A stretch of DNA of 63,383 nucleotides, counting the filler, from Deltaproteobacteria bacterium (lineage in GTDB: Bacteria; JACQOV01), in the NCBI GenBank assembly GCA_016202395.1. It is 4 parts of 4 records of this genome, joined end to end, with 100 filler letters (N's around TTAATTAATTAA, not from the genome) between each part and the next. Parts side by side here need not be neighbours in the genome. Positions count along the whole stretch, not along the records: positions 25,509 to 52,262 come from JACQOV010000055.1; 3 more parts are not named here. One strand, 5' to 3'. Made by a program: the position numbers and the translations under genes. The notes beneath the pieces are model-generated. The model was not told where the DNA came from and ran no database searches. It saw only the letters and a program-made list of their open reading frames with translations. This document shows positions 20,073 through 34,122 of the stretch, piece by piece (positions within the stretch are counted from its first letter, which is position 1; every line of letters begins with the position of its first letter).

Positions 20073-20130
20073 ATAAAGTATATTTTATGCAAATAGGGTG
20101 AAAATAGCAAGTGTATAAATAAGAGTAGAT

Positions 20131-21024: not shown

Positions 21025-21857
21025 CGTGTCATTCTTCCCGGCAAGTTCTGCTGGATCATCCACTGGCGATTGCAAGGTCCCTTGCGGGGACCCGTTGGAT
21101 CGAGCGTGCGATAATCCTTAACTCGAACCTCCCTAAGAGACTGCAGCCGGGTGATTTCAATCCCTCGTCGTTCTAAGATCCATCCAAGGCGCTTGGCGAT
21201 TACCGCATCCAACCTCAAAGCATATTCAATAATCCGATCTATATTCAAATGATTGCCATGCATTTCAAACGCATGCAGCACTTCTGCAAAGTCACCACAG
21301 TACTGCGGCATCCTAAGTCCATCAATGAGTGTTCTCTCTGGGTCCGTGATCGTAACACGGGTCTCTCCAATCCAAACCTTTTCGGTGCCAAAAAATCGCT
21401 CCGGCTTGACGCGAACAAATTGGTATGTGGTATGACTCATAGGGTAGCCGGACCGACCTGCTATCCGCTTCCCTCGCAGACGAGGAATCTCAGTGTCGGT
21501 GGTTGTCAACACAAAGACCGTGCGTGGCACTTGTTCTGTCAAGCCATGATGATGAAGTGCGGACCAATGCGAAATTGCAGCAGGGTTGACCAAAGCCATC
21601 GCGATCTCAAAGTCGTGGGCGGGGGTAACCCCTGGCACAGTGGAGGCAATAGCGTAGAGCCCCCGATGGAGCCGGACCACCCATCCCCCCTTGGCCAGAT
21701 GGTGGAGGGCTTCACTGACATAGCTGTTCGATAGCCCTACGGCCGGAGCTAGGGCACGTGCCCGATCCACTGTAAAAATAAGGTCGCCTTCACCTACGAG
21801 CTTGCGGATCAGCTCCAACCCCGATCCACTATGGATTGGATTTTCTGTGGTTACCAT
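21021..21857 (-). CDS. AbiEi-family antitoxin / transcriptional regulator (type IV TA)
   Basis: N-terminal wHTH with RLHRGLY, ISHWSALHHHGLTEQ, TDPERTLID; translationally coupled to AbiEii. Confidence 0.88.
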   Translation of the reverse strand: MVTTENPIHSGSGLELIRKLVGEGDLIFTVDRARALAPAVGLSNSYVSEALHHLAKGGWVVRLHRGLYAIASTVPGVTPAHDFEIAMALVNPAAISHWSALHHHGLTEQVPRTVFVLTTTDTEIPRLRGKRIAGRSGYPMSHTTYQFVRVKPERFFGTEKVWIGETRVTITDPERTLIDGLRMPQYCGDFAEVLHAFEMHGNHLNIDRIIEYALRLDAVIAKRLGWILERRGIEITRLQSLREVRVKDYRTLDPTGPRKGPCNRQWMIQQNLPGRMTR

Positions 21858-21872
21858 AGATAGATATATTAA

Positions 21873-21903
21873 GGCAATAATTTGATAATATCAAATTATT
21901 ACC
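21873..21903. promoter_or_regulatory. Palindromic operator upstream of abiEi
   Basis: AATAATTTGATA-A-TATCAAATTATT perfect 12-bp arms (21876-21900). AbiEi antitoxins autoregulate through inverted repeats. Confidence 0.65.
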
Positions 21904-22006
21904 ATAAATTATCTATTAACTATGAATCAAAAGCAAAAAATATGTTGCCCTATACGAAGGCAACAAATATATTGACATTGAGTTCAAAACTTGCCATTCT
22001 TAGAGC

Positions 22007-22702
22007 ATGGAGATCATCCCGAAAGCCGCAGCTCTAGTTTTAGATTGCATTCGTGGGCACACGGACCCTTTTTGTTTGGCGGGTGGAACAGGGCTTTCTC
22101 TGTTTTATCTCCAGCATCGTGTCAGTTTTGATCTGGATCTGTTTAACAATGGAGGTAACTTTTCTCGTTATCAAGAAATCCTGCGTGTATGGGAGCAAGG
22201 GGGGTTCACTGTAGAACCTCCTAGAGAAATTTCTGGAGGAGAGCATCCGGTCTTACGGAGCCGGCTTTGGAAAAAGGCAGAAGAGATTAAGGTGGACTGG
22301 ATTGACGATCCCGTTCCTTTAGCGTCACCGCCTAAAGATTTTGATGGAATTCGGGTCATGGGGATTGACGACATCTACTATCGGAAAATCCTGATTGGCG
22401 TCACAGAAGGTCAGACCCGTCGTTTCTTGCGTTTCGAGGCGCGAGATGTCCTCGATCTCTACGCTCTCTCTCACCAACATCAAAAACTTTCCCAACGACT
22501 CGTTCGAGGCGGATATAACTCACAAGCGGCGAGGAATCTCCACTGGTGGTTATCTCGGTTTCCCAAACGAGACATTCAAGAGGAGATCAAAATCACCCAA
22601 TATCAGTTGGAAACATCGAGCGAAGTGATCTTGGATCATCTGAAGGAGGAGATCGAAGAGGCCTTGAGCGCTCTTTTAAAAAGAGAGGGATTAAAGGGAT
22701 GA
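22007..22702 (+). CDS. AbiEii-like nucleotidyltransferase
   Basis: LAGGTGL, HRVSFDLDLF, K..., RDVLDLY; TTGACA-N17-CATTCT promoter just upstream (21972-22000). Confidence 0.8.
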   Translation: MEIIPKAAALVLDCIRGHTDPFCLAGGTGLSLFYLQHRVSFDLDLFNNGGNFSRYQEILRVWEQGGFTVEPPREISGGEHPVLRSRLWKKAEEIKVDWIDDPVPLASPPKDFDGIRVMGIDDIYYRKILIGVTEGQTRRFLRFEARDVLDLYALSHQHQKLSQRLVRGGYNSQAARNLHWWLSRFPKRDIQEEIKITQYQLETSSEVILDHLKEEIEEALSALLKREGLKG

Positions 22703-23235
22703 CACACCCCATTTGGCATGCTTCAGGATTAAGCCCCGCGGAGGTGAAAAAGATCCTTTCCGATCCAAAATATCCTCGTTTTGGAAAGCTTGCGGCCAGT
22801 CTTCTATCGGCCACTTTAGAGATAAAGGAATTATCTCGTTGGATCTCTCCCCGAATCTTAGCCGAAAATTACGATCGAAAGATCCGCAGACATCTTTCCC
22901 AAGGAAGGCTTCGTCATGATACCGATCTCATCGTCCGAGCGATCCAAAAGCAAATCCCTGGGGTCAAAGGCAGGAAGGATAGAGTTTCAGAAGTTCCTTC
23001 CCTGAGGGCTTATACGGATTCTCAGGTGATGGGGCAGCGGTTGCGTGGCTATCGACGTGATGTCGCAAAGCTGTCCGCCCAAAACCTTGCGAAACGGATG
23101 GGAGTATCGAGGCAAAGGGCCCTCGACATCGAAAAAGGGAGATCCTCGATGACACTGAACACCCTTTTTCGCTATATCGAAGCAGCAGGGGGATCCGTGA
23201 GTATCCAGCTTAATTCGAGATCCCTTTACGGATAG
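22699..23235 (+). CDS. Probable antitoxin with C-terminal XRE HTH
   Basis: ATGA-coupled to the upstream NTase; LSAQNLAKRMGVSRQRALDIEKG HTH. Confidence 0.7.
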   Translation: MTHPIWHASGLSPAEVKKILSDPKYPRFGKLAASLLSATLEIKELSRWISPRILAENYDRKIRRHLSQGRLRHDTDLIVRAIQKQIPGVKGRKDRVSEVPSLRAYTDSQVMGQRLRGYRRDVAKLSAQNLAKRMGVSRQRALDIEKGRSSMTLNTLFRYIEAAGGSVSIQLNSRSLYG

Positions 23236-24022
23236 AGACGACCTCCATCACAATGGAGGGGGCGCCGGGGGGCCCCACCGTCCCTTGATATTTTACAAAA
23301 CGATAGGGGGGCTCCTTAGAAAACCAGAAGTAAAAGTCATCTGTGAATGCGGAGGCCACCATTGAAACGAGACCATGGATCGGCATAACACTCTTGAGAT
23401 CCACCGACATCTTAAAACGATAACACTGAAAAGTCCCCGCAGGAACGGTGACAGCCTCGCTCCCAACCCTTTCAACATACATGCGAGAGGCCTGCTCTTC
23501 ACCAATATAAAAATAAAATTCCCTCTTTCCTGAAGACTGCGGCGCTGCTGCAAATCCACTGAGAGCAAAAGACAACGGAAGCCCGTACGTATTGGAAGGG
23601 AGTTTAGTGGCAGGATCCGCCATCGCAACATCGTATTGGAGGATCTCACTACCGCTGGGGCTGTACATCTTCCGAGAATAAGTTAAAGGGATTAAGCTCT
23701 CTCCTGCGCGATAAGTGGATTCAGCGATGATCTGGGTTCCGTCCTTTAGCACTGCCTCCTCGGAGGCATACAAAAGCCCCTCCCCTTCTTTCTCAAACCT
23801 TCGAATCACCTTTCTTCCATAGTACCCTTCCCACCGATCCCACTTGCTTTTTCGCTCCCCTTGCCCTGGCTCAATAATCCGCGTCCGATAAGTGATGATC
23901 GTCTCGGGGTCCTCTACCCAAGGAACCGGCAGAAACACCGATTCCGTCCACGCGGAAACACACAGACACAAAATAGAGACAAAATTAAAAGCTATTTTTT
24001 GCCATGCCTTCATCTTAATCAA
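23210..24022 (-). CDS. Exported protein, DUF3108-like
   Basis: Signal-like N-terminus; E.VTVPAGTF.C and FWFS..P...VK motifs. Confidence 0.6.
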   Translation of the reverse strand: MIKMKAWQKIAFNFVSILCLCVSAWTESVFLPVPWVEDPETIITYRTRIIEPGQGERKSKWDRWEGYYGRKVIRRFEKEGEGLLYASEEAVLKDGTQIIAESTYRAGESLIPLTYSRKMYSPSGSEILQYDVAMADPATKLPSNTYGLPLSFALSGFAAAPQSSGKREFYFYIGEEQASRMYVERVGSEAVTVPAGTFQCYRFKMSVDLKSVMPIHGLVSMVASAFTDDFYFWFSKEPPYRFVKYQGTVGPPGAPSIVMEVVSIRKGISN

Positions 24023-24869
24023 TAAACCAACCGAGGGTGGGAGTAACGGTCAACATAAGGCCGTTGAAATCTGCGTCCGGAGAGCTGACACCCTCTCCAA
24101 AGCTACCGTTGAGGTCTCCCATATTTGTCCAGAAGTAACTTGCCTCGAACTCCACACCAGCCCATCTATTAATTTTGTACAATACCCCCATGTGCGGCTG
24201 CAAAACAAAGAATCCACCCCGGATCTTCTCATCAAAATTCGTAGTCGAAGGCCCGTTAAGCTGTAGGTTGTAACCTCCACCTCCCATCAATCCACCCAAA
24301 GCCCACTCCGTCCTTCTCCACTGAAATACATAATCAAGGATTACTCCTCCATAGCCCATTCCGAATTTGAGTTGGGTCGTTGTGCCGCCTCTGGAGCCCT
24401 CCTCCGACTTTGGGAAGGCTCCATACCCTCCTCCCCCGATTCGGAAATGTCGATTCAAAGTGCCGTACCCTCTACCACCAATCGTAATGATATTGTCACT
24501 TAAAGTCGGTAAGCCAGCTGCCTGAGCCGCGTTATTTATTTCGTTGAAACTCGTGAAAAGATAACCTGTTGACGCACCTCCAGCCCCACCATAATTGCGG
24601 AATCCCCTCGCCAAATCATCTTCGGTTTTGTCCCAAGCCCTCTCCACTTTTTCCAAAATGATCTCGGTTCCTTCTCTAATAAATCGGTCCTCTTCTTCCT
24701 CAGAATCTTTCTCGGCCGGCTCACCCGTCTTGATTGGATCTAACTCTCTTTCATCATCGGTATCCTCTTGGGCGATAAAAAGATTTTGATCGTCTGCAAG
24801 TGTGAGAGCCGGTCCCCAAAGCATAAAGGCCAATATCGATAACAGGTAGAGGATATTTCTGAATAACAT
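24015..24869 (-). CDS. Putative outer-membrane beta-barrel protein
   Basis: Signal peptide ending LTLA, acidic linker, alternating Gly/aromatic strands, C-terminal TPTLGWFID; start chosen at MLFRN after a GAGG RBS. Confidence 0.65.
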   Translation of the reverse strand: MLFRNILYLLSILAFMLWGPALTLADDQNLFIAQEDTDDERELDPIKTGEPAEKDSEEEEDRFIREGTEIILEKVERAWDKTEDDLARGFRNYGGAGGASTGYLFTSFNEINNAAQAAGLPTLSDNIITIGGRGYGTLNRHFRIGGGGYGAFPKSEEGSRGGTTTQLKFGMGYGGVILDYVFQWRRTEWALGGLMGGGGYNLQLNGPSTTNFDEKIRGGFFVLQPHMGVLYKINRWAGVEFEASYFWTNMGDLNGSFGEGVSSPDADFNGLMLTVTPTLGWFID

Positions 24870-24908
24870 TTTTCCCACCTCTCTTCTTGAATAAAGCAAA
24901 TTGGGCGA

Positions 24909-25408
24909 TCAGTTCCCCAAATGGATCTCCTCAGGATCATAAGTTGTATAAAAACTCTCCATCTCTTCAATCACCCGACCCCTTAAATTCTCAGCCTCGA
25001 ACCAAACGCGATGCTTCTCACCTAGTGAAGCTGCCTCCACGTCGATGAATGTAAACCACCGATCGCGATACCACATAACCCCCGCAAAATCGTCGTGCCG
25101 AAAATACCAGTGGGCTCCATCTCCCAGATTGATCTGGATCGATCGGCTAATCTCTTTTGTGGAGGCCTCAGAGAGCTCCAGCCAAAAACGCTCCGTTTCT
25201 TCAGGGCTTTTAAACTGAAGAATACGAACAAATACTTTTCGGAAGGTGGTATGAAAATCCGCCTGCCAGGCTTTTTCTATCGTTAAAGGGAAATTCCCAA
25301 TCCCATCGATCGCAAGATTATGAATCTCACGAACCCCTCCTTTGACTAGATCCAATTCTTTGAGGCTCAGCTTCTTTAAACGTTTCTCATCCAGATCTCC
25401 CAAAGGGA
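24909..25408 (-). CDS. Hypothetical protein, 5'-truncated at contig edge
   Basis: Open frame of about 165 codons running to the gap; co-oriented with the two downstream genes. Confidence 0.55.
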
Positions 25409-25508
25409 NNNNNNNNNNNNNNNNNNNNNNNNNNNNNNNNNNNNNNNNNNNNTTAATTAATTAANNNNNNNNNNNNNNNNNNNNNNNNNNNNNNNNNNNN
25501 NNNNNNNN
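25409..25508. other. Artificial contig linker
   Basis: N44-TTAATTAATTAA-N44 with stops in all six frames; identical to the other two linkers. Confidence 0.97.
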
Positions 25509-25515
25509 CTGTCCA

Positions 25516-26673
25516 ATGGCACGAGCGGAGGTGAGCTATGTCCATTCGGATCATTTGGGTTCGACGAGTGTGGCGACGAACGAGGGTGGGAATGTTCAGC
25601 AAGCTTCAATCTATTCCCCTTACGGTGAAGTTCTCAAAGATCTCAAAGCCGGCGGCATCCAAGCCACGGCGCATCTCTACACCGGCCAAGAACTCGACCC
25701 CGAATCCGCTCTCTACAACTACGTCGCCCGGTGTTATGATTCTGTGCTTTCCCGCTTCACCAGCATCGATCCTGTACAAGGGAATCTCCCGTATGCCTAC
25801 GCCAATAACCGCCCGAATCTCTTTATTGATCCCGATGGGAAAGACCCTGGGCTTGACCTTTTACTGTTGGGAGCTGAAAGTGGCCCCCCTTCGTTCGAGA
25901 ACTTTTTTCTGAGAGATCACCTGGGTAATCTGGTTAGCACCCCAATGGCCTTTAGCCTGGAGGAGATAGGGAATTTTAGGCCACTCCATGCTGTTGATGC
26001 GGCAATAGTTGGTCAGAAACAGTTGATCGTCCGAAACGCCTTCTCGGGGCGAGACTTGCCTTCCGATGCATTGATTAGCCGTCATCTTGGGGGATTGACA
26101 ACAGGAGGGCAAGATACGATTGGGGTGGTCATGAATGCAAATGGGGAGTACGTTGTTTTTCAAGGGCAACATCGGCTGGTGGCCTTGCTGCGCGATGCTT
26201 ACACCGTCTATCCCGTCGAGGAGGGATTTCTCACACTAGAGCAGCAAATGTATCTCCAAGCTCGCAGAATCACGATACAGGTGTTCAAATTTGAGTTCGT
26301 GAGTGAGGGCAATGCCGCGCTAACAGCTGCCAGTGCGCATTTTCAACAGCGATGGGGACGTCCGTTTCCCAGGATGGTCGACGCTGCGATCCACGGAAAG
26401 GTTACCGTCGGGGGTTTTAAAGGGGCAGCGACCCGAGCGGCTGGTCCTATTAGCTCCGCCTTTGCTCTCTATTTTGCCTGGAAGGGGTATCAGGAGACCG
26501 CTGAAGCAACCCGTGGAAATCCTTCCTTAGGATTGTCTGGTGGTTTGTTAGGTGCCACCGGGATTCCCGCGTTTTTTGAGGCCGCTGGAGCCGATTTTTA
26601 CCAAATGATTGGAAGCCTCTGCGCGTTGGGTGGGGGATGCAATTCGACTGAAAGAGATCAACAAGCAGAGTAA
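25516..26673 (+). CDS. Rhs cartridge 1 (5'-truncated): end of signal peptide + Rhs core + ParB/Srx-like C-terminal domain
   Basis: Contig starts at CPMARA|EVSYVHSDHLGS (cf. SCPMAHA in cartridge 2); YTGQELD, ARCYD, DPDG at 25828-25839; C-terminus has GEYVVFQGQHRLVAL. Confidence 0.85.
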   Translation: MARAEVSYVHSDHLGSTSVATNEGGNVQQASIYSPYGEVLKDLKAGGIQATAHLYTGQELDPESALYNYVARCYDSVLSRFTSIDPVQGNLPYAYANNRPNLFIDPDGKDPGLDLLLLGAESGPPSFENFFLRDHLGNLVSTPMAFSLEEIGNFRPLHAVDAAIVGQKQLIVRNAFSGRDLPSDALISRHLGGLTTGGQDTIGVVMNANGEYVVFQGQHRLVALLRDAYTVYPVEEGFLTLEQQMYLQARRITIQVFKFEFVSEGNAALTAASAHFQQRWGRPFPRMVDAAIHGKVTVGGFKGAATRAAGPISSAFALYFAWKGYQETAEATRGNPSLGLSGGLLGATGIPAFFEAAGADFYQMIGSLCALGGGCNSTERDQQAE

Positions 26674-26675
26674 AC

Positions 26676-26696
26676 GGGGTCCGGCTTCGGTGATTC
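26676..26696 (+). repeat. 21-bp module-boundary motif, copy 1 of 7
   Basis: GGGGTCCGGCTTCGGTGATTC, 2 nt after the cartridge 1 stop. Other copies start at 27263, 28883, 30238, 32153, 32819 and 34042. Confidence 0.85.
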
Positions 26697-26720
26697 ACGA
26701 AAAATTTGGAAAGGGTAAGC

Positions 26721-26945
26721 TTAAACGCGTATCGCTTTTTCAATGGGGAGATTCTCAATGCTGATATTCGCAAGGTCTTCAAAACTGAGTCGCTTACTGA
26801 CATCTAAAATTTCAATGCCAACGGCATGTCGATTTTTATCGAGATCTACTGAAATTCCCTCCTCGAGGTCGATGTTATCGTCAACCTCGGCCTCACGAAG
26901 TTGGATGTATAAGGCGTCTGCTTCGTTATCGTATTCGATCTTCAT
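26721..26945 (-). CDS. DUF2283-family antitoxin
   Basis: MKIEYDxEADALYI...DLD...VGIEILD signature. Confidence 0.88.
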   Translation of the reverse strand: MKIEYDNEADALYIQLREAEVDDNIDLEEGISVDLDKNRHAVGIEILDVSKRLSFEDLANISIENLPIEKAIRV

Positions 26946-27226
26946 AATAACTTCACCTCCTTTGGAGGTCTCTTTTTCATGACAGCCGTAATGATAAAAA
27001 ACTCATCGTTCTCTTCAACATACGTTGTTTTTAAAAAGCCATCCGATGTCTTGAGCCACACACCCATTTTTCCTTCGGTCGATCTTTCCACAGCATCAGG
27101 GTTCCGAATAGATTCCTCTACCTTTTTGGGATCGATTTTTCTCCACCGCATTCGGTTCTTTGCATGCCTCGAGTATCGGATCCGATTCACTTTGCTAAAT
27201 ATAGCGTTTTCAAAGATATTAAACAA
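26942..27226 (-). CDS. DUF4258-family (RelE/BrnT-like) toxin; true start may be GTG at 27190
   Basis: YSRHAKNRMRWRKI...I.NPD...IITA; coupled to DUF2283. Confidence 0.8.
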   Translation of the reverse strand: MFNIFENAIFSKVNRIRYSRHAKNRMRWRKIDPKKVEESIRNPDAVERSTEGKMGVWLKTSDGFLKTTYVEENDEFFIITAVMKKRPPKEVKLL

Positions 27227-27262
27227 GCCGCCGGATTCTCACAGGTTTGATGAATTAGTCTT

Positions 27263-27319
27263 GGGGTCTGGCTTCGGTAATTCGGTATTGAGGGAGAGTG
27301 CATGAAACGATGGTTTGTG
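27263..27319 (+). repeat. 57-bp boundary motif + RBS + leader start, duplicated at 30238-30294
   Basis: GGGGTC(T/C)GGCTTCGGTAATTCGGTATTGAGGGAGAGTGCATGAAACGATGGTTTGTG; 56/57 identical. Confidence 0.9.
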
Positions 27320-27379
27320 AGCATAGGGTTTGTGGGGTTGATAGCATGGCAGGAGGCCTCGGCGGAGGTGAGCTATTTT
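27302..27379 (+). pseudogene. Truncated Rhs cartridge: complete signal peptide + AEVSYF only
   Basis: MKRWFVSIGFVGLIAWQEASA|EVSYF, then similarity stops and a DUF2283 gene follows on the opposite strand. Confidence 0.8.
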
Positions 27380-27398
27380 TACAGTGAAAAAATGCAAA

Positions 27399-27623
27399 CT
27401 ACCGTGCAGCTCGGATATCCGATTCTAGTTCATAACCCACCGGCAGGAGGTTCTGAAGATTCAAGTGTTCAGAGGCTCCTAGGATTTCAATCCCTACAAT
27501 CTGGTCGTTCTCACCCATGTCGAGCACCACGTCCTCTGAGACCCTCTTATTTATCACAGGCTGATCTCGATCATCTAGGCGAAGATAGAGCAAATCGGTC
27601 TTGGAGTTATAATGAATCTGCAT
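27399..27623 (-). CDS. DUF2283-family antitoxin
   Basis: MQIHYNSKTDLLYLRL...DMGE..IVGIEIL.AS signature. Confidence 0.85.
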   Translation of the reverse strand: MQIHYNSKTDLLYLRLDDRDQPVINKRVSEDVVLDMGENDQIVGIEILGASEHLNLQNLLPVGYELESDIRAAR

Positions 27624-27625
27624 TT

Positions 27626-27715
27626 TTAATCCTTGATAACATCGTGGATTTCATCCTCACTTGCCCCGCGTTCTTGCGCCCTTTTCAACGTGTGCGGATC
27701 GATTTGAACGTCCAT
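27626..27715 (-). pseudogene. Truncated DUF4258-like toxin (29 aa)
   Basis: Hand-translated MDVQIDPHTLKRAQERGASEDEIHDVIKD*, the H..R..ERG...EI..V N-terminus of the family, directly upstream of DUF2283. Confidence 0.7.
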
Positions 27716-27850
27716 TCAGGGTTTGGCTCCATTTCCGATCAAATCATGGTAAGTTCTACCCACAAGAGGCAATGTAGCAGAGGTGTCTCATGAAAACAAG
27801 GATTGATAACTGTGACAGAAGGGGTCAGTTTTAAGTTTTTAAGTAACGCC

Positions 27851-28900
27851 ATGAAGGTAAGGTTTGAAAAAATAGCGTTGTTATCTTTGGTCTGTGCCAT
27901 TTCCTGTCCAATGGCTCATGCCGAGATGAGCTATTTTCATGCGGATCACCTCGGTTCCACCGCCGTCGGAACAGATTCGTCTGGAGTGGTTCAGCAAGCC
28001 GAGTACTACACTCCGTTTGGAGAGATTTTAAGGGGAGAGGAAAGAGGTGAGGGGGCGACTCCCTATCTCTACACCGGTCAAGAAAAAGACTCTTCCACAG
28101 ACTTTTACTATTTTCAAGCTCGTTACTATGATCCCTTGCTGGCTCGTTTTGTCAGCGCTGATCCGTTAAAAGACGCAAAAAATCCGCAAGATTTTCATCT
28201 TTACGCCTATGCTTGGAACAATCCTTTAAAAGTAATCGACCCTTCAGGAGAGAGCGAGGAAGATCCATTGACCTTGCATCAGATCTTGAGGACCGAAATC
28301 ACTGTCGGTAAGTTTGACAAAAACCTTACTCTTATGCTGGATCCCGCGACAGAACCCCGAGAGCGTGATATTGCTCAGGGGCATGTTGATCACCTGTTGT
28401 CGGCGCGACATATTTATAGCTATGAGCCGGATCCCGTTGGAGTTACCAGCCAAATGCGTGAAAGAATCATTCAGGTTTCAGATCCGGACTTGCGCCGGGA
28501 TCTTCTTCGCAAGTTAGAGAGATCTTTAGGTGTTTACCTGGAGAGATTCACGACTCGTTACCTTAGGGTTACAGAAAAACGGGGAAGGGCAGAAGTAGGG
28601 TCGGTTGTGCTTGCAGCTTTGGTGGGAGCTTTGGTGAGTCGTCGGTTAGGACCTCCTGCCCCTCTTATCACAGAGGGCAATCTTGTTGCCTTTGTGAGGC
28701 ATTTTTATCGTTTTGGAGTTCCGGGGTTAGCTGCGGGGGGTGGAGCTGATGCGGGTTTGAGCAATAGAAAAGGGCTTTACGATTGGAAGATTGAGTATAA
28801 GAGAAGGATGTTTGGTTTGTTGGACGTTCGTCAGCAAGTAATTGAAGATCTTTACCGTGAGGAGGGGGTCCAGTATAGCAGTGGGATCCAGCTTCGGTAA
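27851..28900 (+). CDS. Rhs cartridge 2: signal peptide + Rhs core + unknown helical C-terminal domain
   Basis: MKVRFEKIALLSLVCAISCPMAHA|EMSYFHADHLGS; YTGQEKD; ARYYDP; NNPLKVIDPSG. The stop codon lies inside the boundary motif. Confidence 0.88.
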   Translation: MKVRFEKIALLSLVCAISCPMAHAEMSYFHADHLGSTAVGTDSSGVVQQAEYYTPFGEILRGEERGEGATPYLYTGQEKDSSTDFYYFQARYYDPLLARFVSADPLKDAKNPQDFHLYAYAWNNPLKVIDPSGESEEDPLTLHQILRTEITVGKFDKNLTLMLDPATEPRERDIAQGHVDHLLSARHIYSYEPDPVGVTSQMRERIIQVSDPDLRRDLLRKLERSLGVYLERFTTRYLRVTEKRGRAEVGSVVLAALVGALVSRRLGPPAPLITEGNLVAFVRHFYRFGVPGLAAGGGADAGLSNRKGLYDWKIEYKRRMFGLLDVRQQVIEDLYREEGVQYSSGIQLR

Positions 28901-28989
28901 TTCACGCGTCCTGGATTCCCGCTTGCGCGGGAATGACGGATAGATTGTCGCCACGTGGCGACAATGTATCTGGGGTCCCGTCGCGTGTT
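28883..28989 (+). repeat. Composite spacer: boundary motif + ATTCCC-N8-GGGAAT REP-like hairpin + perfect 22-bp palindrome
   Basis: GGGATCCAGCTTCGGTAATTC (28883-28903); ATTCCC-GCTTGCGC-GGGAATGACG (28915-28938); ATTGTCGCCACGTGGCGACAAT (28944-28965). Recurs at 32153-32256 and 34042-34122. Confidence 0.88.
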
Positions 28990-29012
28990 GACGAGTTGTT
29001 GGGTTTTTAATC

Positions 29013-30218
29013 ATGATGGAAAAATTTAAAAAGATAGCGTTAGGGTTTTTCGGAACTGTTTTGTGTGGACAGATGGCTCAGGCGGAGGTGAGCTATGTCC
29101 ATTCGGATCATTTGGGTTCGACGAGTGTGGCGACAAATTCAGCTGGCACGGTTCAGCAAGTGGCAATCTATTCCCCTTACGGTGCGATTTTAAGGGGAGA
29201 GGAAAGAGGTGAGGGGGCGACGGCCTATCTCTACACCGGCCAAGAACTCGACCGCGGATCGAATCTCTCCTACTACGGCGCCCGGTATTACGATCCGACG
29301 CTTTCCCGTTTCCTCAGCATTGACCTAGTTCAAGGGAACCTCCCCTACACCTATGTCAACAACAATCCAATTATTTTAATTGATCCCGACGGGAATATCC
29401 CTTTGATCCCTATTTTATTGGGTTTTGCTGTTGGTGGAATGATTGGTTTGAAATCGGATGGGGCGGACGATCCTCTCGAAGAGACGTATGATGCTAAGAG
29501 TGGAGGAGTTGGTGCAGTTGCAGGTGCAACGGGAGTCGCCGTTTTTTATACGGGAGCTCCTGCTGCACTTAGGCTTGCTGCGCGATATCCTATTCCAGCT
29601 GGGTTGCTGGGATGGGGTGGACGAGAAGCTCTGAATACCTATGAAAATGGTGGAGCTGGAGGATCAGCGTTGGCGAATGCAGCTTTTTTCGATGATCTTA
29701 TTGAATTGGTTGGACGGAATTCTTTTAGGGTTGAAGGCGCTGTGAGCGAAGGTTTAAGGGGTGGAATGTTCAGTCGAGCATCGCTGATTGGGATGGTACG
29801 GGCCGCTTTAGAGAGAAGCCCCATGTCTCGGGCTGCAGCTCAAGCTTTGATTCCAGCCATAAGAGGTCAGTTGCAGTGGATACATGGCACACGCCAAAGG
29901 GCTTTGCTAATGAATATGGGTGGTTTATTGAAACGAAACGCTCAACCTGCGTTTCGTAGAAATCCAGAACAGTTTAATGCTTTAAGGGATTCTTTCATTC
30001 AGCTTCGTCGAGGGGTTGGGGATGATGTGCCTCAGGTGACGGAAGATAATGTAGTGGAGTGGGTTTATTATGCTCTAAGCGAGGTGGAACATCTTGCAGG
30101 GCGAGAAGCTTTGACAAACTTGGGGCCGGTTGACAAGTATGTGGAGTTTGCTCAGCAATTGTCGAACGCAGTCTCTTTGCCGGAAGGTCTAACTTCCCTT
30201 CCCGGTGTTCTTCATTGA
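29013..30218 (+). CDS. Rhs cartridge 3: signal peptide + Rhs core + Gly-rich hydrophobic/helical C-terminal domain
   Basis: MMEKFKKIALGFFGTVLCGQMAQA|EVSYVHSDHLGS; GARYYDP; NNPIILIDPDG (DPDG 29382-29393). Confidence 0.88.
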   Translation: MMEKFKKIALGFFGTVLCGQMAQAEVSYVHSDHLGSTSVATNSAGTVQQVAIYSPYGAILRGEERGEGATAYLYTGQELDRGSNLSYYGARYYDPTLSRFLSIDLVQGNLPYTYVNNNPIILIDPDGNIPLIPILLGFAVGGMIGLKSDGADDPLEETYDAKSGGVGAVAGATGVAVFYTGAPAALRLAARYPIPAGLLGWGGREALNTYENGGAGGSALANAAFFDDLIELVGRNSFRVEGAVSEGLRGGMFSRASLIGMVRAALERSPMSRAAAQALIPAIRGQLQWIHGTRQRALLMNMGGLLKRNAQPAFRRNPEQFNALRDSFIQLRRGVGDDVPQVTEDNVVEWVYYALSEVEHLAGREALTNLGPVDKYVEFAQQLSNAVSLPEGLTSLPGVLH

Positions 30219-30276
30219 TGATCAAACAAAGGAGAATGGGGTCCGGCTTCGGTAATTCGGTATTGAGGGAGAGTGC

Positions 30277-30312
30277 ATGAAACGATGGTTTGTGGGCGCC
30301 GGGTTGGCTTGA
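30277..30312 (+). pseudogene. Remnant of a cartridge signal peptide (MKRWFVGAGLA*)
   Basis: Follows the duplicated 57-bp leader; its TGA stop lies in the -35 box of the downstream TA promoter. Confidence 0.7.
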
Positions 30313-30340
30313 CTTTATGACCAGACCAGACTAGACTAGA
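30309..30340 (+). promoter_or_regulatory. Sigma70-like promoter of the phd-vapC module with short tandem repeats
   Basis: TTGACT-N17-TAGACT overlapping CCAGA CCAGA CTAGA CTAGA. Confidence 0.6.
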
Positions 30341-30360
30341 AAATAGAGGACACAAGATTT

Positions 30361-30597
30361 ATGTACATTACAAACATCTCTGAGGCCAAGGCTCAGCTAT
30401 CGGCCCTGATCGAGAAGGTGTTGGCCGGCGCTGAAATCATCATTGGGAAGGCGGGCAAACCTGTGGCTAAGCTTATTCCCTATCGACGCAGTGAGGTTCC
30501 GCGCAGGCCAGGGGCTCTCAAAGGAAAGATTAAAATAGCCAAGGATTTTGACCTACTGCCTAAAGATATCGCTCTCTCTTTTGGGGCGGAAGAATGA
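30361..30597 (+). CDS. Phd/YefM-family antitoxin
   Basis: NISEAKAQLSALIE...GKPVAKL...R.PG.LKG signature. Confidence 0.92.
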   Translation: MYITNISEAKAQLSALIEKVLAGAEIIIGKAGKPVAKLIPYRRSEVPRRPGALKGKIKIAKDFDLLPKDIALSFGAEE

Positions 30598-30971
30598 ACC
30601 TCCTTTTGGATACGCATATTCTGTTGTGGTGGTTGGACGATCATCCAGGGTTGTCTGAGAGGGAACGGCGTGCAATCGGTGATGGAGAGAACAGCGTGTG
30701 GGTGAGCACTGCGGTAATTTGGGAGGTTCGTATAAAACAGGCCCTCGGCAAACTCACTCTTCCTTCCAGCTTTCGCACCGTGTTGGAGGAGGAACCGTTT
30801 TTGAGTCTCGATGTCACGTCGGAACATGCCCATGCAGTTTATGAACTCCCAATGCATCATCGGGATCCTTTTGACCGGATGCTCATTGCGCAGGCTCAGG
30901 TGGAGCGATTTACGCTCGTCACCCACGATCCTTTCTTCAAAAAATATGACATCGATGTTATGGAAGTTTAA
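30594..30971 (+). CDS. vapC: PIN-domain VapC toxin
   Basis: LLDTHILLW, WE, HRDPFDRMLIAQA, LVTHD. Confidence 0.93.
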   Translation: MNLLLDTHILLWWLDDHPGLSERERRAIGDGENSVWVSTAVIWEVRIKQALGKLTLPSSFRTVLEEEPFLSLDVTSEHAHAVYELPMHHRDPFDRMLIAQAQVERFTLVTHDPFFKKYDIDVMEV

Positions 30972-32147
30972 ATGAATCAAATGGGGCGATGGTTTGCACA
31001 AGGTGGATTGGTCTTCTTGCTCTTAGGGCAAGGAGTTTATGCCGAGGTGAGCTATTTTCATTCGGATCATTTGGGCTCAACGAGTGTGACGACGAATTCG
31101 GCGGGCGCGGTTCAGCAGATCGAGTACTACACTCCGTTTGGAGAGATTTTAAGGGGAGAGGAAAGAGGTGAGGAGGCGACTCCCTATCTCTACACCGGCC
31201 AAGAACTCGATTCTGAAAGCGCCCTTTATTATTTGGGAGCCCGTTATGTCGATACGCAGATGGGGCGATTTCTTTCTGCGGACCCGATTCAAAGGTTTTC
31301 TCCCTATGCTTATGTATTGAATAACCCGATTCGCCTTGTCGATCCGGATGGCAATGCAGCAGAAGAGTCCGGAATGGCTCCCACTCCAGAGCCCACTCCC
31401 GACCCAGTGCCCACTCCAAGCCCCTATCCAGGTTATCAAGAACCCACTGACAGAGAGGTAGCCGTAACAGGGTTACTTGTTGCTGCTCCTTTTGCTGCTG
31501 TAGGCGCAGTTTATACTTGGCCTTATATCGCGGCGGCTGGAGAATCTATTATGGGGGGTGTGATTGGGTATTTTCTTCGACATTCCGGTCCGTTGATTCT
31601 AGGAGGGGAAGTGGTGCGACGAGCAGCGGCTCGGTCTCCAATTCCCGATTTGGGTGTTCTTTCAAGTCGGGTGACCGCGCTTGAACAGCGAATGGCTGCC
31701 CTGCAAAGTGAGCTTGAAGCGGGCATACGCACTGCTCAACAATCTCAAGACGTGTTAGCTTTGATAGATCAGTTTACCGGTGTGCTTAGAGGCGTTACTT
31801 CTTTATTGAATAGCACCGTAGGGCAACGGGGTTTTGATTTCGGAGCGGTGGCCGAGCGTCTAGCCCGCAATCCGCGACTGTTCCAAGGCATTCAAGGTAT
31901 TTTGGGCAGTACCCCCATTAATCCGGCTGATCAGGCTATTATGGCTGTTAATGCTGCTCCAGAGGCAATAGCGCTCGGTCGTATTATCGAACGGCTTTCA
32001 GCGTATAGTCAATATAATATTCCTGGCATTATAGAAGCGGCTCGGACAAATCCACGTTTTCTAGAAGCTACTGTGCAACTTCTCGGTAAAGATGCACAGC
32101 TCGTTGCATCGGTTGAAAGGCTGATGCAGAAAGGCCCTCTTCATTAA
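30972..32147 (+). CDS. Rhs cartridge 4: signal peptide + Rhs core + Pro/Thr linker, TM segment and coiled-coil C-terminal domain
   Basis: MNQMGRWFAQGGLVFLLLGQGVYA|EVSYFHSDHLGS; GARYVD; NNPIRLVDPDG; PTPEPTPDPVPTPSP. Confidence 0.88.
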   Translation: MNQMGRWFAQGGLVFLLLGQGVYAEVSYFHSDHLGSTSVTTNSAGAVQQIEYYTPFGEILRGEERGEEATPYLYTGQELDSESALYYLGARYVDTQMGRFLSADPIQRFSPYAYVLNNPIRLVDPDGNAAEESGMAPTPEPTPDPVPTPSPYPGYQEPTDREVAVTGLLVAAPFAAVGAVYTWPYIAAAGESIMGGVIGYFLRHSGPLILGGEVVRRAAARSPIPDLGVLSSRVTALEQRMAALQSELEAGIRTAQQSQDVLALIDQFTGVLRGVTSLLNSTVGQRGFDFGAVAERLARNPRLFQGIQGILGSTPINPADQAIMAVNAAPEAIALGRIIERLSAYSQYNIPGIIEAARTNPRFLEATVQLLGKDAQLVASVERLMQKGPLH

Positions 32148-32152
32148 GAAAT

Positions 32153-32256
32153 GGAGTCCGGCTTCGGCAATTCAGGAGTCATCCCCGTTTGCACGGGAAT
32201 GACGGATAGATTGTTGCCACGTGGCGACAATGTAACTGGGGCCCCGTCGCGTGTTG
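32153..32256 (+). repeat. Composite spacer copy 2
   Basis: GGAGTCCGGCTTCGGCAATTC; GTCATCCCCGTTTGCACGGGAATGAC hairpin (32178-32203); ATTGTTGCCACGTGGCGACAAT (32210-32231, one mismatch). Confidence 0.88.
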
Positions 32257-32330
32257 GCAAGTGGTGTGAGGCTTGCCCTGTTGCATCTATTTTCATGATT
32301 TGGTAAGATTTATCTAGAGGAGGTAAGATT

Positions 32331-32561
32331 ATGGCAAGGGTAGAAGCATTCGCCACGAAAATTCCGGTCAATTTGAAGCAGGCTCTAGATCAAGTCTGTG
32401 AGAAGCTTGGCCTGCGCAAAAACTTTGTGGTGGAATCGGCGCTACGAGAAAAAATCGAGGATCTCCGAGACACCTACGATCTCGAACAAGCCATGGGTGA
32501 AGCCACAGGTTTTCACTCCTGGGAAAAGGTTAAGAAAGAACTGGGGCTCCCCAAAAAATGA
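32331..32561 (+). CDS. RHH/CopG-like antitoxin
   Basis: Short RHH-like N-terminus and SWEKVKKELG tail; TTGCAT-N17-TAAGAT promoter at 32281-32309; coupled to relE. Confidence 0.8.
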   Translation: MARVEAFATKIPVNLKQALDQVCEKLGLRKNFVVESALREKIEDLRDTYDLEQAMGEATGFHSWEKVKKELGLPKK

Positions 32562-32812
32562 GATATCCTGTTGAACTCGAAAATCGGGCCAGGCGAGAGT
32601 TCCTAGACCTCCCCGAAGAAGTGCAACGAAGGCTATCACAGGCTTTGGACGATCTGGAAGTCAATCCTCGTCCCCCAGGAGCCAAAAAACTTACGGGTAA
32701 AGAAGGGTACCGTATCCGCAAAGGGGATTACCGGATCCTCTACACCATTGACGACTCAGAGCGTCTTGTAAGAGTTTATAGGATTGGCCATCGCCGTGAG
32801 ATCTATCGTTAA
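32558..32812 (+). CDS. relE: RelE/ParE-family toxin
   Basis: NPRPPGAKKL, YRIRKGDYRILY, IGHRREIYR. Confidence 0.93.
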   Translation: MRYPVELENRARREFLDLPEEVQRRLSQALDDLEVNPRPPGAKKLTGKEGYRIRKGDYRILYTIDDSERLVRVYRIGHRREIYR

Positions 32813-32818
32813 AGAAAC

Positions 32819-32951
32819 GGGGTCAGACTTCGGTATGGGGTGTCATCCCCGCGAAAGCGGGAATCCCGTCATTCCCACGAAAGTGGGAATCCAGTACTGG
32901 ATCCCCGCTTCCGCGGGGATGACGGGTTCTCCCGTTTGCACGGGAATGACG
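32819..32951. repeat. Boundary motif followed by four CGTC-type REP-like units in head-to-head arrangement
   Basis: GGGGTCAGACTTCGGTA; TGTCATCCCCGCGAAAGCGGGAATCC; CGTCATTCCCACGAAAGTGGGAATCCAG; then two inverted units ending in ATGACG, centred on CCAGTACTGG. Confidence 0.88.
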
Positions 32952-32994
32952 GATGGGAGCCCTTTGCGGTCAACTTACAGATGAGGGTTGTTCA

Positions 32995-34029
32995 ATGATA
33001 CGATGGAGTTTCATTTTTGCGTTGTGTTTTGGCATGGCTCATGCCGAGGTGAGCTATTTTCACTCGGATCATTTGGGCTCAACGAGTGTGACGACGAATT
33101 CGGCGGGCGCGGTACAGCAGATCGAGTACTACACTCCGTTTGGAGAGATTTTAAGGGGAGAGGAAAGAGGTGAGGGGGCGACTCCCTATCTCTACACCGC
33201 CCAAGAACTCGACCGCGACTCTGAACTATTCTATTACAACGCCCGGTACTATGATCCTTCTTTAGCCCGTTTTTACTCTCGGGATCCTCTCTTTAAAACC
33301 AGCCCCCAAAAACTCAATCCCTATCTTTATGTGGGAGGCAATCCCTGTCGATTCACCGATCCTTCGGGAGAGGATTGGAGGGATGTTGTAAGCGGGGCTT
33401 GGGACGAGACGAAGTACATTCTCTCCGAAGGAACGATTTTACCCCGTGGGCCTGCCAAGGGGGTCGATGTCGAGGATTACGAGAGGGGTCGTTTAGCTGC
33501 CCGTGCAGCTATGGCTACGAAAGGGGTTGCTGAGATTACGGGTGGGATCGTTTTGATTGGAGGGGGAGTTGGTCTTGAGGTGGGATCGCTCGGCACGGGA
33601 ACTTTGGTTGCCACAGGCGCAGTCGTTGTTGGGAGTGTTTTGGTGAGGGATGGGGCTGCAAACATCGGTATAGCTGCAGTCGAGTCGATGAATTCTTACA
33701 TGAAATCCCACGAAGCTCCCGGACCTTCTGGAAAATCGGTTAGGGATGGGCACAGCTTGCAGTGGGAGACAGAAGGAAAGTTTCCTGAGGAGCTTGACTA
33801 CGAGGGTGAGAGAATTGGTCAAATGAGGGAAACAAGTTCCCGAGCGAGAAAAGAATTGGATCAGGCCCGTCGTTCCTTCGAGGCATATCCTGATGACAGC
33901 ACTTGGCAAGGACTCCAGAAATCGATACGTCGCGCAAGGGAGTTATCTCCTTCGTTGCGTGCGGGGCCTCGGGAGGCTCTAGAGACAGCGATTGGCGATG
34001 CGGAAATGGCATTGAGGGCGCAAGAATGA
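32995..34029 (+). CDS. Rhs cartridge 5: signal peptide + Rhs core + glycine-zipper-like segment and small C-terminal domain
   Basis: MIRWSFIFALCFGMAHA|EVSYFHSDHLGS (GAGGG RBS upstream); NARYYDP; GNPCRFTDPSG; GGIVLIGGGVGLEVGSLGTGTLVATGAVVVG. Confidence 0.88.
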   Translation: MIRWSFIFALCFGMAHAEVSYFHSDHLGSTSVTTNSAGAVQQIEYYTPFGEILRGEERGEGATPYLYTAQELDRDSELFYYNARYYDPSLARFYSRDPLFKTSPQKLNPYLYVGGNPCRFTDPSGEDWRDVVSGAWDETKYILSEGTILPRGPAKGVDVEDYERGRLAARAAMATKGVAEITGGIVLIGGGVGLEVGSLGTGTLVATGAVVVGSVLVRDGAANIGIAAVESMNSYMKSHEAPGPSGKSVRDGHSLQWETEGKFPEELDYEGERIGQMRETSSRARKELDQARRSFEAYPDDSTWQGLQKSIRRARELSPSLRAGPREALETAIGDAEMALRAQE

Positions 34030-34041
34030 GATGTAGGAAAG

Positions 34042-34122
34042 GGGGTTAGGCTTTGGTCATTCAAGAGTCATCCCCGCTTTCGCAGGAATGACGGATAGAT
34101 TGTCGCCACGTGGCGACAATCT
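34042..34122 (+). repeat. Composite spacer copy 3 (end of array)
   Basis: GGGGTTAGGCTTTGGTCATTC; GTCATCCCCGCTTTCGCAGGAATGAC; perfect 26-bp palindrome AGATTGTCGCCACGTGGCGACAATCT (34097-34122). Confidence 0.88.

Follow-up and report, generated by a model that had tools for sequence, protein, structure and literature searches.

TIRtrons consist of a RAYT-like gene, named TIRYT, flanked by TIRs that share the sequence GGGGWSAS; in the available text of their description, these TIRs also make up moderately abundant families of solo, dimeric (paired) or grouped repeats (PMC3733652). Further features found there are a Y1/HUH gene with a DnaA-C-like HTH, inverted repeats of ~30 nt that start with GGGGWSAS and form no hairpins, and a 3′ repeat that overlaps the gene end. 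In the available text of a second paper, the TIR consensus is GGGG[AT][CG]A[CG], and 20 of 26 TIRYTs belong to subclass 2.1 of TnpA_REP, with Bac_DnaA_C/HTH C-terminal domains (PMC6006769). The REP/REPIN-RAYT systems (E. coli TnpA_REP 4ER8, Pseudomonas REPINs) rely on an enzyme of the same superfamily as TIRYT. Orphan Rhs/CDI toxin-tip arrays are built of tandem units whose 5′ part, encoding the core, is conserved and whose C-terminal tips are unrelated, and they recombine via conserved core sequence. Finally, integron arrays carry a same-orientation attC site, with the core GTTRRRY, behind each ORF and include scattered TA cassettes.

Each of these systems resembles in part an array of Rhs-tip genes found in an uncultured groundwater bacterium (draft genome of 1.9 Mb, assembly 89% complete). 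The motif repeated along this array is the outer part of a TIRtron TIR, an already-known type of mobile repeat. Its solo and mostly relic copies have probably been carried along with the cartridge blocks by homologous recombination.

Results

The analysed window is a pseudomolecule of 63,383 nucleotides whose contigs are joined by N44-TTAATTAATTAA-N44 linkers. The array starts right at a contig end (window position 25509 is base 1 of contig C30), and cartridge 1 is therefore cut. Its features, with the repeat family of the motif named D, are as follows.

25516..26673, plus strand: Rhs-tip cartridge 1, truncated at the contig start; the Rhs_assc_core domain (TIGR03696) precedes a C-terminal part that varies
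26676..26696, plus strand: family-D TIR copy 1 (truncated), 2 nt past the cartridge 1 stop
26721..27226, minus strand: antisense DUF2283 and DUF4258 pair (putative toxin-antitoxin, TA), between TIR copies 1 and 2
27263..27289, plus strand: family-D TIR copy 2 (full 27-nt, both 8-mers), followed by an RBS, an ATG and a cartridge-leader remnant
27399..27623, minus strand: second antisense DUF2283 gene, in place of a cartridge body; the cartridge leader persists at 27302-27379
27803..28900, plus strand: Rhs-tip cartridge 2, ORF as listed; likely start ATG 27851
27821..27848, plus strand: solo sister-family-B TIR, 2 nt ahead of the likely cartridge 2 ATG (27851)
28883..28903, plus strand: family-D TIR copy 3 (truncated), holding the TAA stop of cartridge 2; REP2 palindrome next
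29013..30218, plus strand: Rhs-tip cartridge 3, ORF
30238..30264, plus strand: family-D TIR copy 4 (full 27-nt), first 21 nt without mismatch; truncated cartridge start next
30361..30971, plus strand: Phd/YefM antitoxin and PIN toxin pair
30972..32147, plus strand: Rhs-tip cartridge 4, ORF
32153..32173, plus strand: family-D TIR copy 5 (truncated), 5 nt past the cartridge 4 stop
32331..32812, plus strand: RelB-like antitoxin and ParE toxin pair, between TIR copies 5 and 6
32819..32835, plus strand: family-D TIR copy 6 (first 17 nt only), 6 nt past the ParE stop
32841..32954, no strand: REP2 palindrome cluster (ATYCCC-N-GGGRAT type); single units also at ~28915-28941, 32181-32207 and 34070-34096
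32953..34029, plus strand: Rhs-tip cartridge 5, ORF
34042..34062, plus strand: family-D TIR copy 7 (most diverged), 12 nt past the cartridge 5 stop; array end

All five cartridges match TIGR03696 (61-82 bits, cut-off 32.5). Their C-terminal parts gave no match in a Pfam search and cannot be aligned among themselves.

Scanning the window with the consensus (up to 3 mismatches) recovered the copies at 26676, 27263, 28883, 30238 and 32153, all on the plus strand. These five matches compare with 0.02 expected, and none of 100 shuffles used as background reached five. The copies at 32819 and 34042 were contributed by repeat family D5, and all seven stand in register with 66-100% identity to the reference over 29 nt, which bears out the seven same-strand copies listed by the sequence-only reading. 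Its placement of the motif near the 3′ end of the cartridges also stands, since a copy lies 0-19 nt after every Rhs-tip gene: 2, 19, 5 and 12 nt after the ORF ends 26673, 30218, 32147 and 34029, respectively, and overlapping the end at 28900, where the motif does supply the stop codon of cartridge 2 (TAA at 28898-28900 inside copy 28883). Two TA modules are bordered as had been proposed, namely DUF2283/DUF4258 (26676/27263) and RelB/ParE (32153/32819). The partial GGGGTCAG noticed at 27821 does exist, as a member of another repeat family, B, with 26 nt matching the repeat that flanks the transposase gene on contig C57.

The canonical repeat reads GGGGTCAG-GC-TTCGGTAA-TTCGGTAT-TGAC and is thus built of an 8-nt head and two family-specific tandem 8-mers. 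Its head satisfies GGGGWSAS; among the seven window copies, only 32819 fits this consensus strictly and the remaining ones carry the diverged heads GGGGTCCG, GGGGTCTG, GGGATCCA, GGAGTCCG and GGGGTTAG. The second half of the canonical repeat, with the second 8-mer, is missing in five of the seven. The most diverged copies are 32819, where the first 17 nt are preserved with 1-2 changes, and 34042, with 4 changes per 21 nt.

Absence of the motif outside the array, another observation of the sequence-only reading, holds within the window but not genome-wide: 21 copies (up to 2 mismatches) are spread over seven contigs of the 1.9-Mb draft, compared with one in the reversed-sequence control. The motif is mostly tied to Rhs-tip arrays but is not array-specific. 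Indeed, 16 of the 21 copies lie within or next to such arrays (10 directly follow an Rhs-tip stop and another 6 are within 1.5 kb of an Rhs-tip ORF), against a background of 4.9% of genome bases in Rhs ORFs. On contig C89, direct copies bracket an AAA_14/DUF4143 gene.

An association with a Y1/RAYT transposase emerged from a metagenome scan with the exact 21-mer, which returned 119 stretches; 79 loci were retrieved from these and examined. A TIRYT homologue is located within 120 nt of a motif copy in 29 of the 79, and 11 loci are complete elements of ~1039 bp with inverted copies 1038-1064 nt apart. Ten of these 11 encode a protein of 321-335 aa (the D-type enzyme has 324 aa), and in nine the right TIR encodes the final codons (KYRITEA-stop). 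The ~30-nt D end is nearly invariant across several unrelated MAGs and many metagenome contigs. In a related MAG, degenerate TIRYT genes have the D-like repeat GGGGTCAGGCTTCGTTA... at their bounds.

Two intact TIRYT paralogues of 322-323 aa, 51% identical, are present in the genome itself. Both match NF047646 REP_Tyr_transpos at 83.5 bits (cut-off 80), as well as Y1_Tnp and Bac_DnaA_C, and the closest solved chains are TnpA_REP 4ER8 (a weak match) and DnaA. Their translations contain HFH and RYIHLNP, which we take to be the HUH motif and the region of the catalytic tyrosine. The inverted repeats that bound each paralogue combine the shared GGGGTCAG head with tandem 8-mers specific to that paralogue, and make up families B and C. 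The gene on C57 is flanked by the family B repeat, to which the solo copy at 27821 belongs, and family B also forms six inverted doublets with 70-78 nt spacing. Together with the published GGGGWSAS and the 29 metagenome loci, these paralogues confirm that GGGGTCAG-like ends go with HUH/REP-associated tyrosine transposases. No D-type TIRYT was detected by tblastn in the 89%-complete assembly, where the only matches were the two paralogues at 40-41% identity; a cognate D enzyme may exist outside it, since the assembly is incomplete.

Comparison of the repeat surroundings revealed a common edge. Homology blocks open at the motif's outer G or up to 7 nt ahead of it and extend downstream into the next cartridge, while the upstream flanks are unrelated. 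Block 27262-27379 matches C95, block 32820-33154 matches C104, and block 32812-33206, which starts 7 nt upstream of copy 32819, is 80% identical to C5:1123-1545 over 424 nt. Cartridges 4 and 5 share core segments of up to 97.7% identity.

Discussion

The four TIRtron features are all present for family D in the metagenome loci and for the sister families in this genome. Two differences concern the D family in the present genome: its copies are mostly truncated with no cognate gene in the assembly, and they are nearly confined, in a single orientation, to arrays of Rhs-tip and TA genes. Neither the build of a head plus tandem 8-mers nor the link with toxin arrays is mentioned in the available text of PMC3733652 and PMC6006769.

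As in REP/REPIN-RAYT systems, a single-copy TIRYT gene lies between copies of a dispersed repeat specific to it, and the inverted doublets of family B are REPIN-like. TIRYT differs from RAYT in being twice as long with an extra HTH domain, and the repeat copies number in the tens here compared with hundreds for REP/REPIN. A classical REP/REPIN was rejected for D: its unit has neither a GTAG tag nor a palindromic hairpin, and folding of the solo unit does not surpass that of shuffled sequences (z -0.3 and -0.9). The only hairpin former is a back-to-back repeat pair on C57 (-35.4 kcal/mol, z -12.5). With regard to orphan Rhs/CDI arrays, the shared layout of tandem units is accompanied by three differences: each unit of the present array carries a start codon and a signal-peptide-like leader of its own, there is no room for a separate immunity ORF between stop and motif, and the downstream edge of the variable part is a transposon-end repeat.

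In the favoured explanation, the motif is the outer 21-27 nt of the TIR of a TIRtron, a ~1 kb element whose TIRYT gene, of TnpA_REP subclass 2.1, encodes a single-strand-DNA transposase of the RAYT-like Y1/HUH type that ends in a DnaA-domain-IV-like HTH. The D family persists in this genome as solo copies only, mostly truncated or diverged, with no cognate gene assembled. What the repeat is, which enzyme accompanies it in other DNA, that sister systems exist in this genome and where the homology edges fall are all shown by the data. As no biochemistry is reported for any TIRYT in the available text of the two papers (PMC3733652, PMC6006769), we infer the respective roles of its domains: the Y1 domain may work at the conserved GGGGTCAG head and the HTH may recognise the family-specific tandem 8-mers. 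TIRYT activity, whether past or in trans, would have seeded the copies, which would later have multiplied with the cartridge blocks; most of them are now presumably relics. They mark module boundaries because each heads a conserved block that precedes a cartridge, in the apparent order TIR, RBS, signal-peptide leader and Rhs core, with REP2 palindromes following the TIR in some cases. Such blocks may be copied or converted between cartridges via ordinary homologous recombination, and the intervening segments (C-terminal tips, TA pairs) would get replaced.

Several observations fit less well with relic copies. Several independent comparisons place the sharp edge exactly at a transposon-type end. 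Active end-specific joining would leave such an edge too, and passive duplication gives no reason for one at the outer G. Besides, cartridge 2 running into the motif for its stop looks like a junction at the repeat edge. Within-genome duplication also leaves unaccounted for the TA modules that are bracketed, in unrelated organisms, by direct copies of the same near-invariant repeat: ychF-D-(ORF, antitoxin, PIN)-D in loci L024/L106 and DUF4258/DUF2283 in L085, with a pair of Rhs-like ORFs in L076.

These same observations speak for an active HUH-driven cassette system, a reading that we consider unlikely. Here TIRYT, either an unassembled cognate or the paralogues in trans, would nick the outer edge of direct copies; the TIR plus its downstream module, up to the next copy, would leave as a circle and re-insert at another copy, and arrays of Rhs tips and TA pairs would in this way be assembled and reshuffled. 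Rep proteins and relaxases act thus between two direct nick sites. The single orientation of all seven copies, the homology edges at the outer G with their downstream extension, the stop codon within the motif and the intact paralogues in the genome are consistent with such a system, as are the direct copies that bracket DUF2283/DUF4258, RelB/ParE and the AAA_14/DUF4143 gene on C89. TA-type Pfam families lie within 900 nt of a copy in 10 of 50 TIRYT-less metagenome loci, 'TA' being the label of the present analysis. Against it, the public runs, with short contigs that break at repeats and joint sides of 20-28 nt inside repeats, yielded no variant, circle or empty site; the second 8-mer is absent from five of the seven copies and the 89%-complete assembly holds no cognate enzyme. 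Moreover, repeat-adjacent TA proteins of different organisms are 27-41% identical, so that no recent co-transfer is seen, and the position after an ORF end on the same strand is only mildly enriched (22 of 57 metagenome solo copies versus 248 of 1000 random positions). The cassette-shuffling site for recombination or cleavage proposed by the sequence-only reading is kept as a hypothesis, because the motif is not array-specific, has no cognate enzyme in the assembly and is half-missing in five of seven copies, the homology runs into the downstream unit, and the short public contigs gave no direct sign of module gain or loss with breakpoints in the motif. A broader version is likewise unlikely: TIRYT repeats would be nick/rejoin sites that define mobilisable units of repeat plus downstream module, and direct arrays would be the HUH counterpart of an integron, gathering and reshuffling polymorphic-toxin tips and TA pairs across unrelated groundwater and sediment bacteria, with the GGGGTCAG head as cleavage site and the tandem 8-mers as an address for the DnaA-like HTH.

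A cis-acting expression signal kept by selection, whether a terminator, a 3′-UTR stabiliser, a promoter/operator or a translational-coupling element, is very improbable. The constant placement between stop and RBS and the agreement in orientation with the genes would suit it, and in complete TIRtrons a TAnnnT hexamer that precedes the TIRYT start follows the inner repeat end TTGAC at a distance of 17 nt. In the array, the gap from repeat to ATG is only 9 nt, which leaves no space for a -10 box. In addition, the solo repeat has no structure beyond that of shuffles and no T-run, none of 10 promoter-like and 15 terminator-like array sites coincides with a copy (neither class being above shuffles), an Rfam search returned no family at threshold, and copies of this repeat border transposase genes in other DNA.

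Despite the same-orientation site after each ORF and the TA cassettes in the array, an integron-like attC recombined by a tyrosine recombinase can be practically dismissed, as the sequence-only reading had done: the 21-30 nt site is unfolded, with neither an imperfect palindrome (same z values) nor the GTTRRRY core, homology is continuous with the downstream unit rather than with an upstream cassette of ORF plus site, and the only two Phage_integrase-family genes of the genome are on other contigs (C62 and C63), beside no array, the head of the present array being missing at the contig end.

To conclude, since receiving their name in 2013, TIRYT/TIRtron elements have been little studied. The D family offers a clean study case, with an element of ~1039 bp, a near-invariant 30-nt end of a simple and testable build (a shared 8-nt head and two family-specific 8-mers) and a recurring neighbourhood of TA and Rhs modules between direct copies. 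Should the enzyme act on such copies, this would be a new way of assembling competition and addiction genes into arrays. Otherwise, the array would be a site where transposon-end relics gather and are copied along with cartridges, which matters for the annotation of 'module boundary' motifs.

Results

A 21-bp repeat follows the Rhs-tip genes of the array

Searching the window with the consensus 21-mer and up to three mismatches returned five matches, all on the + strand, at 26676, 27263, 28883, 30238 and 32153, where 0.02 were expected and none of 100 shuffles reached five. The copies at 32819 and 34042 are two more diverged members, and repeat grouping places all seven in one family, in register, here named family D. 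Measured on the sequence and the ORF list, the distances from the stops of four Rhs-tip ORFs to the copy that follows are 2, 19, 5 and 12 nt, and the TAA ending ORF 27803-28900 (cartridge 2) falls within the copy at 28883. The observation of the sequence-only reading, i.e. seven copies in one orientation, present near the 3' end of every cartridge, with one of them supplying the stop codon of cartridge 2, is thus real. In five of the seven, the match to the canonical repeat ends at about 21 nt, where REP2 units (see below) or other sequence take over; both 8-mers of the family tail are kept only at 27263 and 30238. The solo repeat folds no more stably than shuffles (z -0.3 and -0.9), and a back-to-back inverted pair on contig C57 folds at -35.4 kcal/mol (z -12.5). 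A small upstream ORF, considered since an ATG immediately precedes the motif in some copies, was dropped because several copies lack it.

Contigs are joined in the window by linkers N44-TTAATTAATTAA-N44 (25409-25508, 52263-52362 and 60691-60790), so neighbours across them are not physically linked. The first base of the array is also that of contig C30 (window 25509), so cartridge 1 is cut and the upstream end of the array is missing. The RHS repeat-associated core domain TIGR03696 was found in all five cartridges (61-82 bits, cut-off 32.5), each of which starts with a hydrophobic, leader-like N-terminus; their C-terminal parts gave no Pfam match, and the window leaves no room for a separate immunity ORF between a tip stop and the next unit.

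Modules found between the cartridges
Antisense DUF2283/DUF4258 pair
Second antisense DUF2283 gene
Phd/PIN pair
RelB/ParE pair

The two antisense DUF2283 modules are not duplicates of one cassette, since they share no DNA similarity and their proteins are 35% identical. Across the draft genome (1.9 Mb, 108 contigs, 89% complete), 62 Rhs-type loci account for 4.9% of all bases. Three genes are full-length (2485-3192 aa), and the remaining loci are mostly tips of roughly 330-460 aa, a few being shorter or cut at a contig end. Most loci are short genes made of a leader, the end of the Rhs core and a variable tip, set in long tandem arrays such as those at 16801-27101 and 42468-51020 of contig C28.

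Family D is one of several repeat families with a common head

A genome count allowing up to two mismatches to the 17-nt head, with A or C at position 7, yielded 21 family D copies on 7 contigs versus one in the reversed-sequence control, which together with the shuffles rules out chance or low complexity. Ten directly follow the stop of a same-strand Rhs-tip ORF; six others are found at most 1.5 kb from one, two of these six directly behind PIN toxin genes on C65. The other five comprise the back-to-back inverted pair and a single copy on C57, and two copies on C89 on one side of an antisense AAA_14/DUF4143 gene, whose other side carries a third copy with three mismatches, outside the 21. Orientation is nearly uniform within each contig. 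Family D is concentrated in Rhs/TA arrays; the earlier impression that it is absent outside the array under study is right for the window but does not hold for the genome.

Listing the GGGGTC-headed words of the genome uncovered several families with this head and different tails. All those seen are built of a head, 2 nt and two similar 8-mers.

Repeat families sharing the head
Family B: GGGGTCAG TTTTAAGT TTTTAAGT; 19 copies, including six inverted doublets 70-78 nt apart
Family C: GGGGTCAG AC CTAACTAT CTAACTAT; 9 copies, seven on the Rhs-rich contig C28 and four directly after Rhs-tip stops
Family D: GGGGTCMG GC TTCGGTAW TTCGGTAT; 21 copies

The partial GGGGTCAG reported at 27821 is present, but it is a solo family B copy rather than a member of family D. 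Family B doublets occur on C2, C11, C24, C36, C71 and C93, and a further pair flanks an intact transposase gene (locus L008, C57:8205-9260); the family resembles a REPIN population and, unlike families C and D, is mostly located away from Rhs genes. Another GGGGTC-headed repeat, family E (GGGGTCMAGTCGYKTGTTGAC), occupies 28972-28992 and 32238-32258 and about 12 sites genome-wide; it ends in TTGAC, which yields a promoter-like match at 28988-29017 upstream of cartridge 3.

Other repeats accompany the array. REP2 palindromes (ATYCCC-N-GGGRAT type) lie at 28915-28941, 32181-32207, 32841-32954 and 34070-34096 and also genome-wide (146 matches versus 15 in the reversed control); public contigs stack on these units with summed depths ranging from hundreds up to about 13,000, which makes the unit very abundant in that groundwater community, well outside the present genome. 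A 22-nt palindrome, perfect or nearly so, ATTGTCGCCACGTGGCGACAAT (28944-28965, 32210-32231, 34099-34120 and C108:1248), follows REP2 units only in the array and at one other site, and its last array copy, together with a T-run, scores as terminator-like at the end of the array. Rfam gave nothing above threshold, the sole match being a sub-threshold DUF3577 RNA motif (31.2 bits, gathering 42.6) at 32825-32923 inside the REP2 cluster. A longer repeat, GGGGTCAAAAATCTTGCGAGTGAAGCGAG..., is found within a few hundred bases of the ends of about 15 contigs (e.g. C20:88, C21:156, C32:10, C45:115 and C49:31) and probably represents the terminus of a multi-copy element that interrupts the assembly.

The repeat is a TIRtron end

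A Pfam Y1_Tnp search of the genome retrieved two genes above cut-off, on C28 and C57. Both are intact (322-323 aa, mutually 51% identical), score 83.5 bits against a cut-off of 80 for the NCBIfam REP-associated tyrosine transposase, and carry a C-terminal Bac_DnaA_C HTH domain; their nearest solved chains, DnaA domain IV and E. coli TnpA_REP 4ER8, are weak matches. Inverted repeats flank the C28 gene (family C) and the C57 gene (family B), and the downstream repeat overlaps the last codons of each. Such an organization was described by Di Nocera et al. (2013, PMC3733652), who reported RAYT-like genes flanked by long TIRs instead of REP hairpins, many TIRs sharing GGGGWSAS; the units were named TIRtrons and the enzymes TIRYTs, and moderately abundant TIR families occur as solo, dimeric or grouped copies. 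In the classification of Quentin et al. (2018, PMC6006769), TnpA_REP subclass 2.1 contains 20 of 26 TIRYTs, its members have Bac_DnaA_C or other HTH C-terminal domains, and the TIR consensus is GGGG[AT][CG]A[CG]. GGGGTCAG matches both published consensus forms.

Elements bounded by family D itself were found in other DNA. A species-genome scan for exact matches to the 21-mer, in which one position could be A or C and another A or T, identified four loci in three MAG records; in one of these genomes, a D-like repeat, GGGGTCAGGCTTCGTTA..., bounds degenerate TIRYT genes, and other full-length TIRYT genes of the three MAGs are bordered by inverted repeats that have GGGGTCAG as head and tandem sub-repeats of their own. 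A metagenome scan matched 119 stretches, from which 79 loci were fetched; being near-exact matches by design, they are uninformative on diverged copies. A TIRYT homologue lies within 120 nt of the copy in 29 of the 79, in agreement with the proposed link between GGGGTCAG-like ends and HUH/REP-associated tyrosine transposases. Eleven loci hold complete elements whose inverted copies are spaced 1038-1064 nt, of which ten encode a protein of 321-335 aa and nine have a right TIR that encodes the last residues and the stop; the canonical family D end is GGGGTCAGGCTTCGGTAATTCGGTATTGAC. Cognate elements of family D thus exist in other DNA, and sister systems with intact enzymes in this genome. Tblastn of the 89%-complete assembly with a D-type enzyme found only the two paralogues on C28 and C57, at 40-41% identity, which makes family D an orphan in this assembly.

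In complete TIRtrons (L095, L073, L104, L110 and others), the inner TTGAC of the left repeat lies 17 nt 5' of a TGaTAnnnT-like hexamer preceding the TIRYT start, a spacing by which the repeat may provide the -35 element of the promoter that drives the enzyme gene. Metagenome locus L120 has inverted D copies at a distance of 2.7 kb (817-3540); two small ORFs, a DUF3467 gene and a complete TIRtron belonging to another repeat family lie between them, and the whole may be a cargo-bearing composite unit.

Edges of homology fall at the outer end of the repeat

In a BLASTN comparison of the array with the genome, similarity between units starts 0-7 nt before the outer G of the motif and extends downstream.

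Similar segments of the array
27262-27379: matches two places on C95 and 30237-30305
32812-33206: matches C5:1123-1545, 80% over 424 nt
32820-33154: matches C104
28887-28999, 32145-32265 and 34034-34120: match one another

In the alignments, the sequence 5' of the motif is unrelated (a toxin-tip end in one case, the end of a ParE gene in another) and conservation begins at GGGG. The conserved block thus opens with the repeat (TIR), followed in some cases by REP2 palindromes and then by RBS, leader and Rhs core; from the core to the next repeat, the sequence is variable. Cartridges 4 and 5 share core segments with 97.7% identity over 172 nt, an indication that the conserved parts still undergo recombination or conversion with one another. 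Directly after two full-length D copies, 27302-27379 and 30278-30310 are remnants of cartridge starts (MKRWFV... leader) whose remainder is replaced by an antisense DUF2283 gene or by a Phd/PIN pair, so some module breakpoints fall inside the leader or core, not at the motif.

Discussion

The most plausible account of these data, which we hold to be fairly probable, is that the copies of this TIRtron end were seeded by TIRYT action, were then multiplied along with cartridge blocks, and are now in majority relics. Every family seen combines a head, 2 nt and two similar 8-mers; in this account, the Y1/HUH domain would act at the shared head and the HTH would read the two family-specific 8-mers.

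The main competing explanation, which appears rather doubtful, regards the copies as live sites: two direct copies would be nicked at their outer edge by an HUH enzyme, which could free a unit of repeat plus module able to re-insert at another copy. The sharp homology edges and the cartridge 2 stop codon within the repeat would fit this scheme, as would direct copies bracketing modules in unrelated organisms. Indeed, the order in L024 and L106 is ychF-D-[ORF, antitoxin, PIN]-D and then an antisense DUF2283/DUF4258 pair, L085 holds a DUF4258/DUF2283 pair between two copies, copies separate Rhs-like ORFs in L076, and families that we labelled TA-type adjoin the copy in 10 of 50 TIRYT-less metagenome loci. 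However, when TA proteins encoded next to the repeat are compared across organisms, their identity is only 27-41%, for which reason the idea of one TA cassette moving along with the repeat from organism to organism was rejected, and metagenome solo copies are only mildly enriched just past ORF ends (22/57 versus 248/1000 random positions). The truncated copies and the lack of a cognate enzyme in the 89%-complete assembly also speak against live sites, and neither variant nor circle was seen in public runs, all from one study, whose short contigs break at repeats.

In these four groundwater runs, 47-91% of sampled words are present and the array appears as short Logan contigs ending at repeats. 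Joints such as 26699 to 32842 or 30258 to 32842 rest on sides that measure 20-28 nt and fall within repeated sequence; they are indistinguishable from other genomic copies and hence show neither module gain nor loss. Public contigs spanning 25819-27299, 29227-30274 and 31144-32213 with zero differences reproduce those assembly junctions and may come from the source sample itself. Among 40 other genomes, all kin at domain level only, none contained the 17-mer with up to one mismatch.

A role as an expression signal, which the position of the copies after stops could evoke, is unlikely given that the repeat has neither structure nor T-run, coincides with no promoter-like or terminator-like site, and matches no Rfam family above threshold. 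As the sequence-only reading had already stated, the repeat is not an integron attC; that reading fails on structure, enzyme and direction of homology.

To conclude, the motif represents a probably new repeat family, orphaned here, of a known but barely studied kind, as judged against the published TIR consensus. Compared with the published TIRtron descriptions, its head-plus-tandem-8-mer build may be novel, and so may the match between homology edges and the repeat's outer end, and the concentration of family D copies, in one orientation, at every Rhs-tip/TA module junction.
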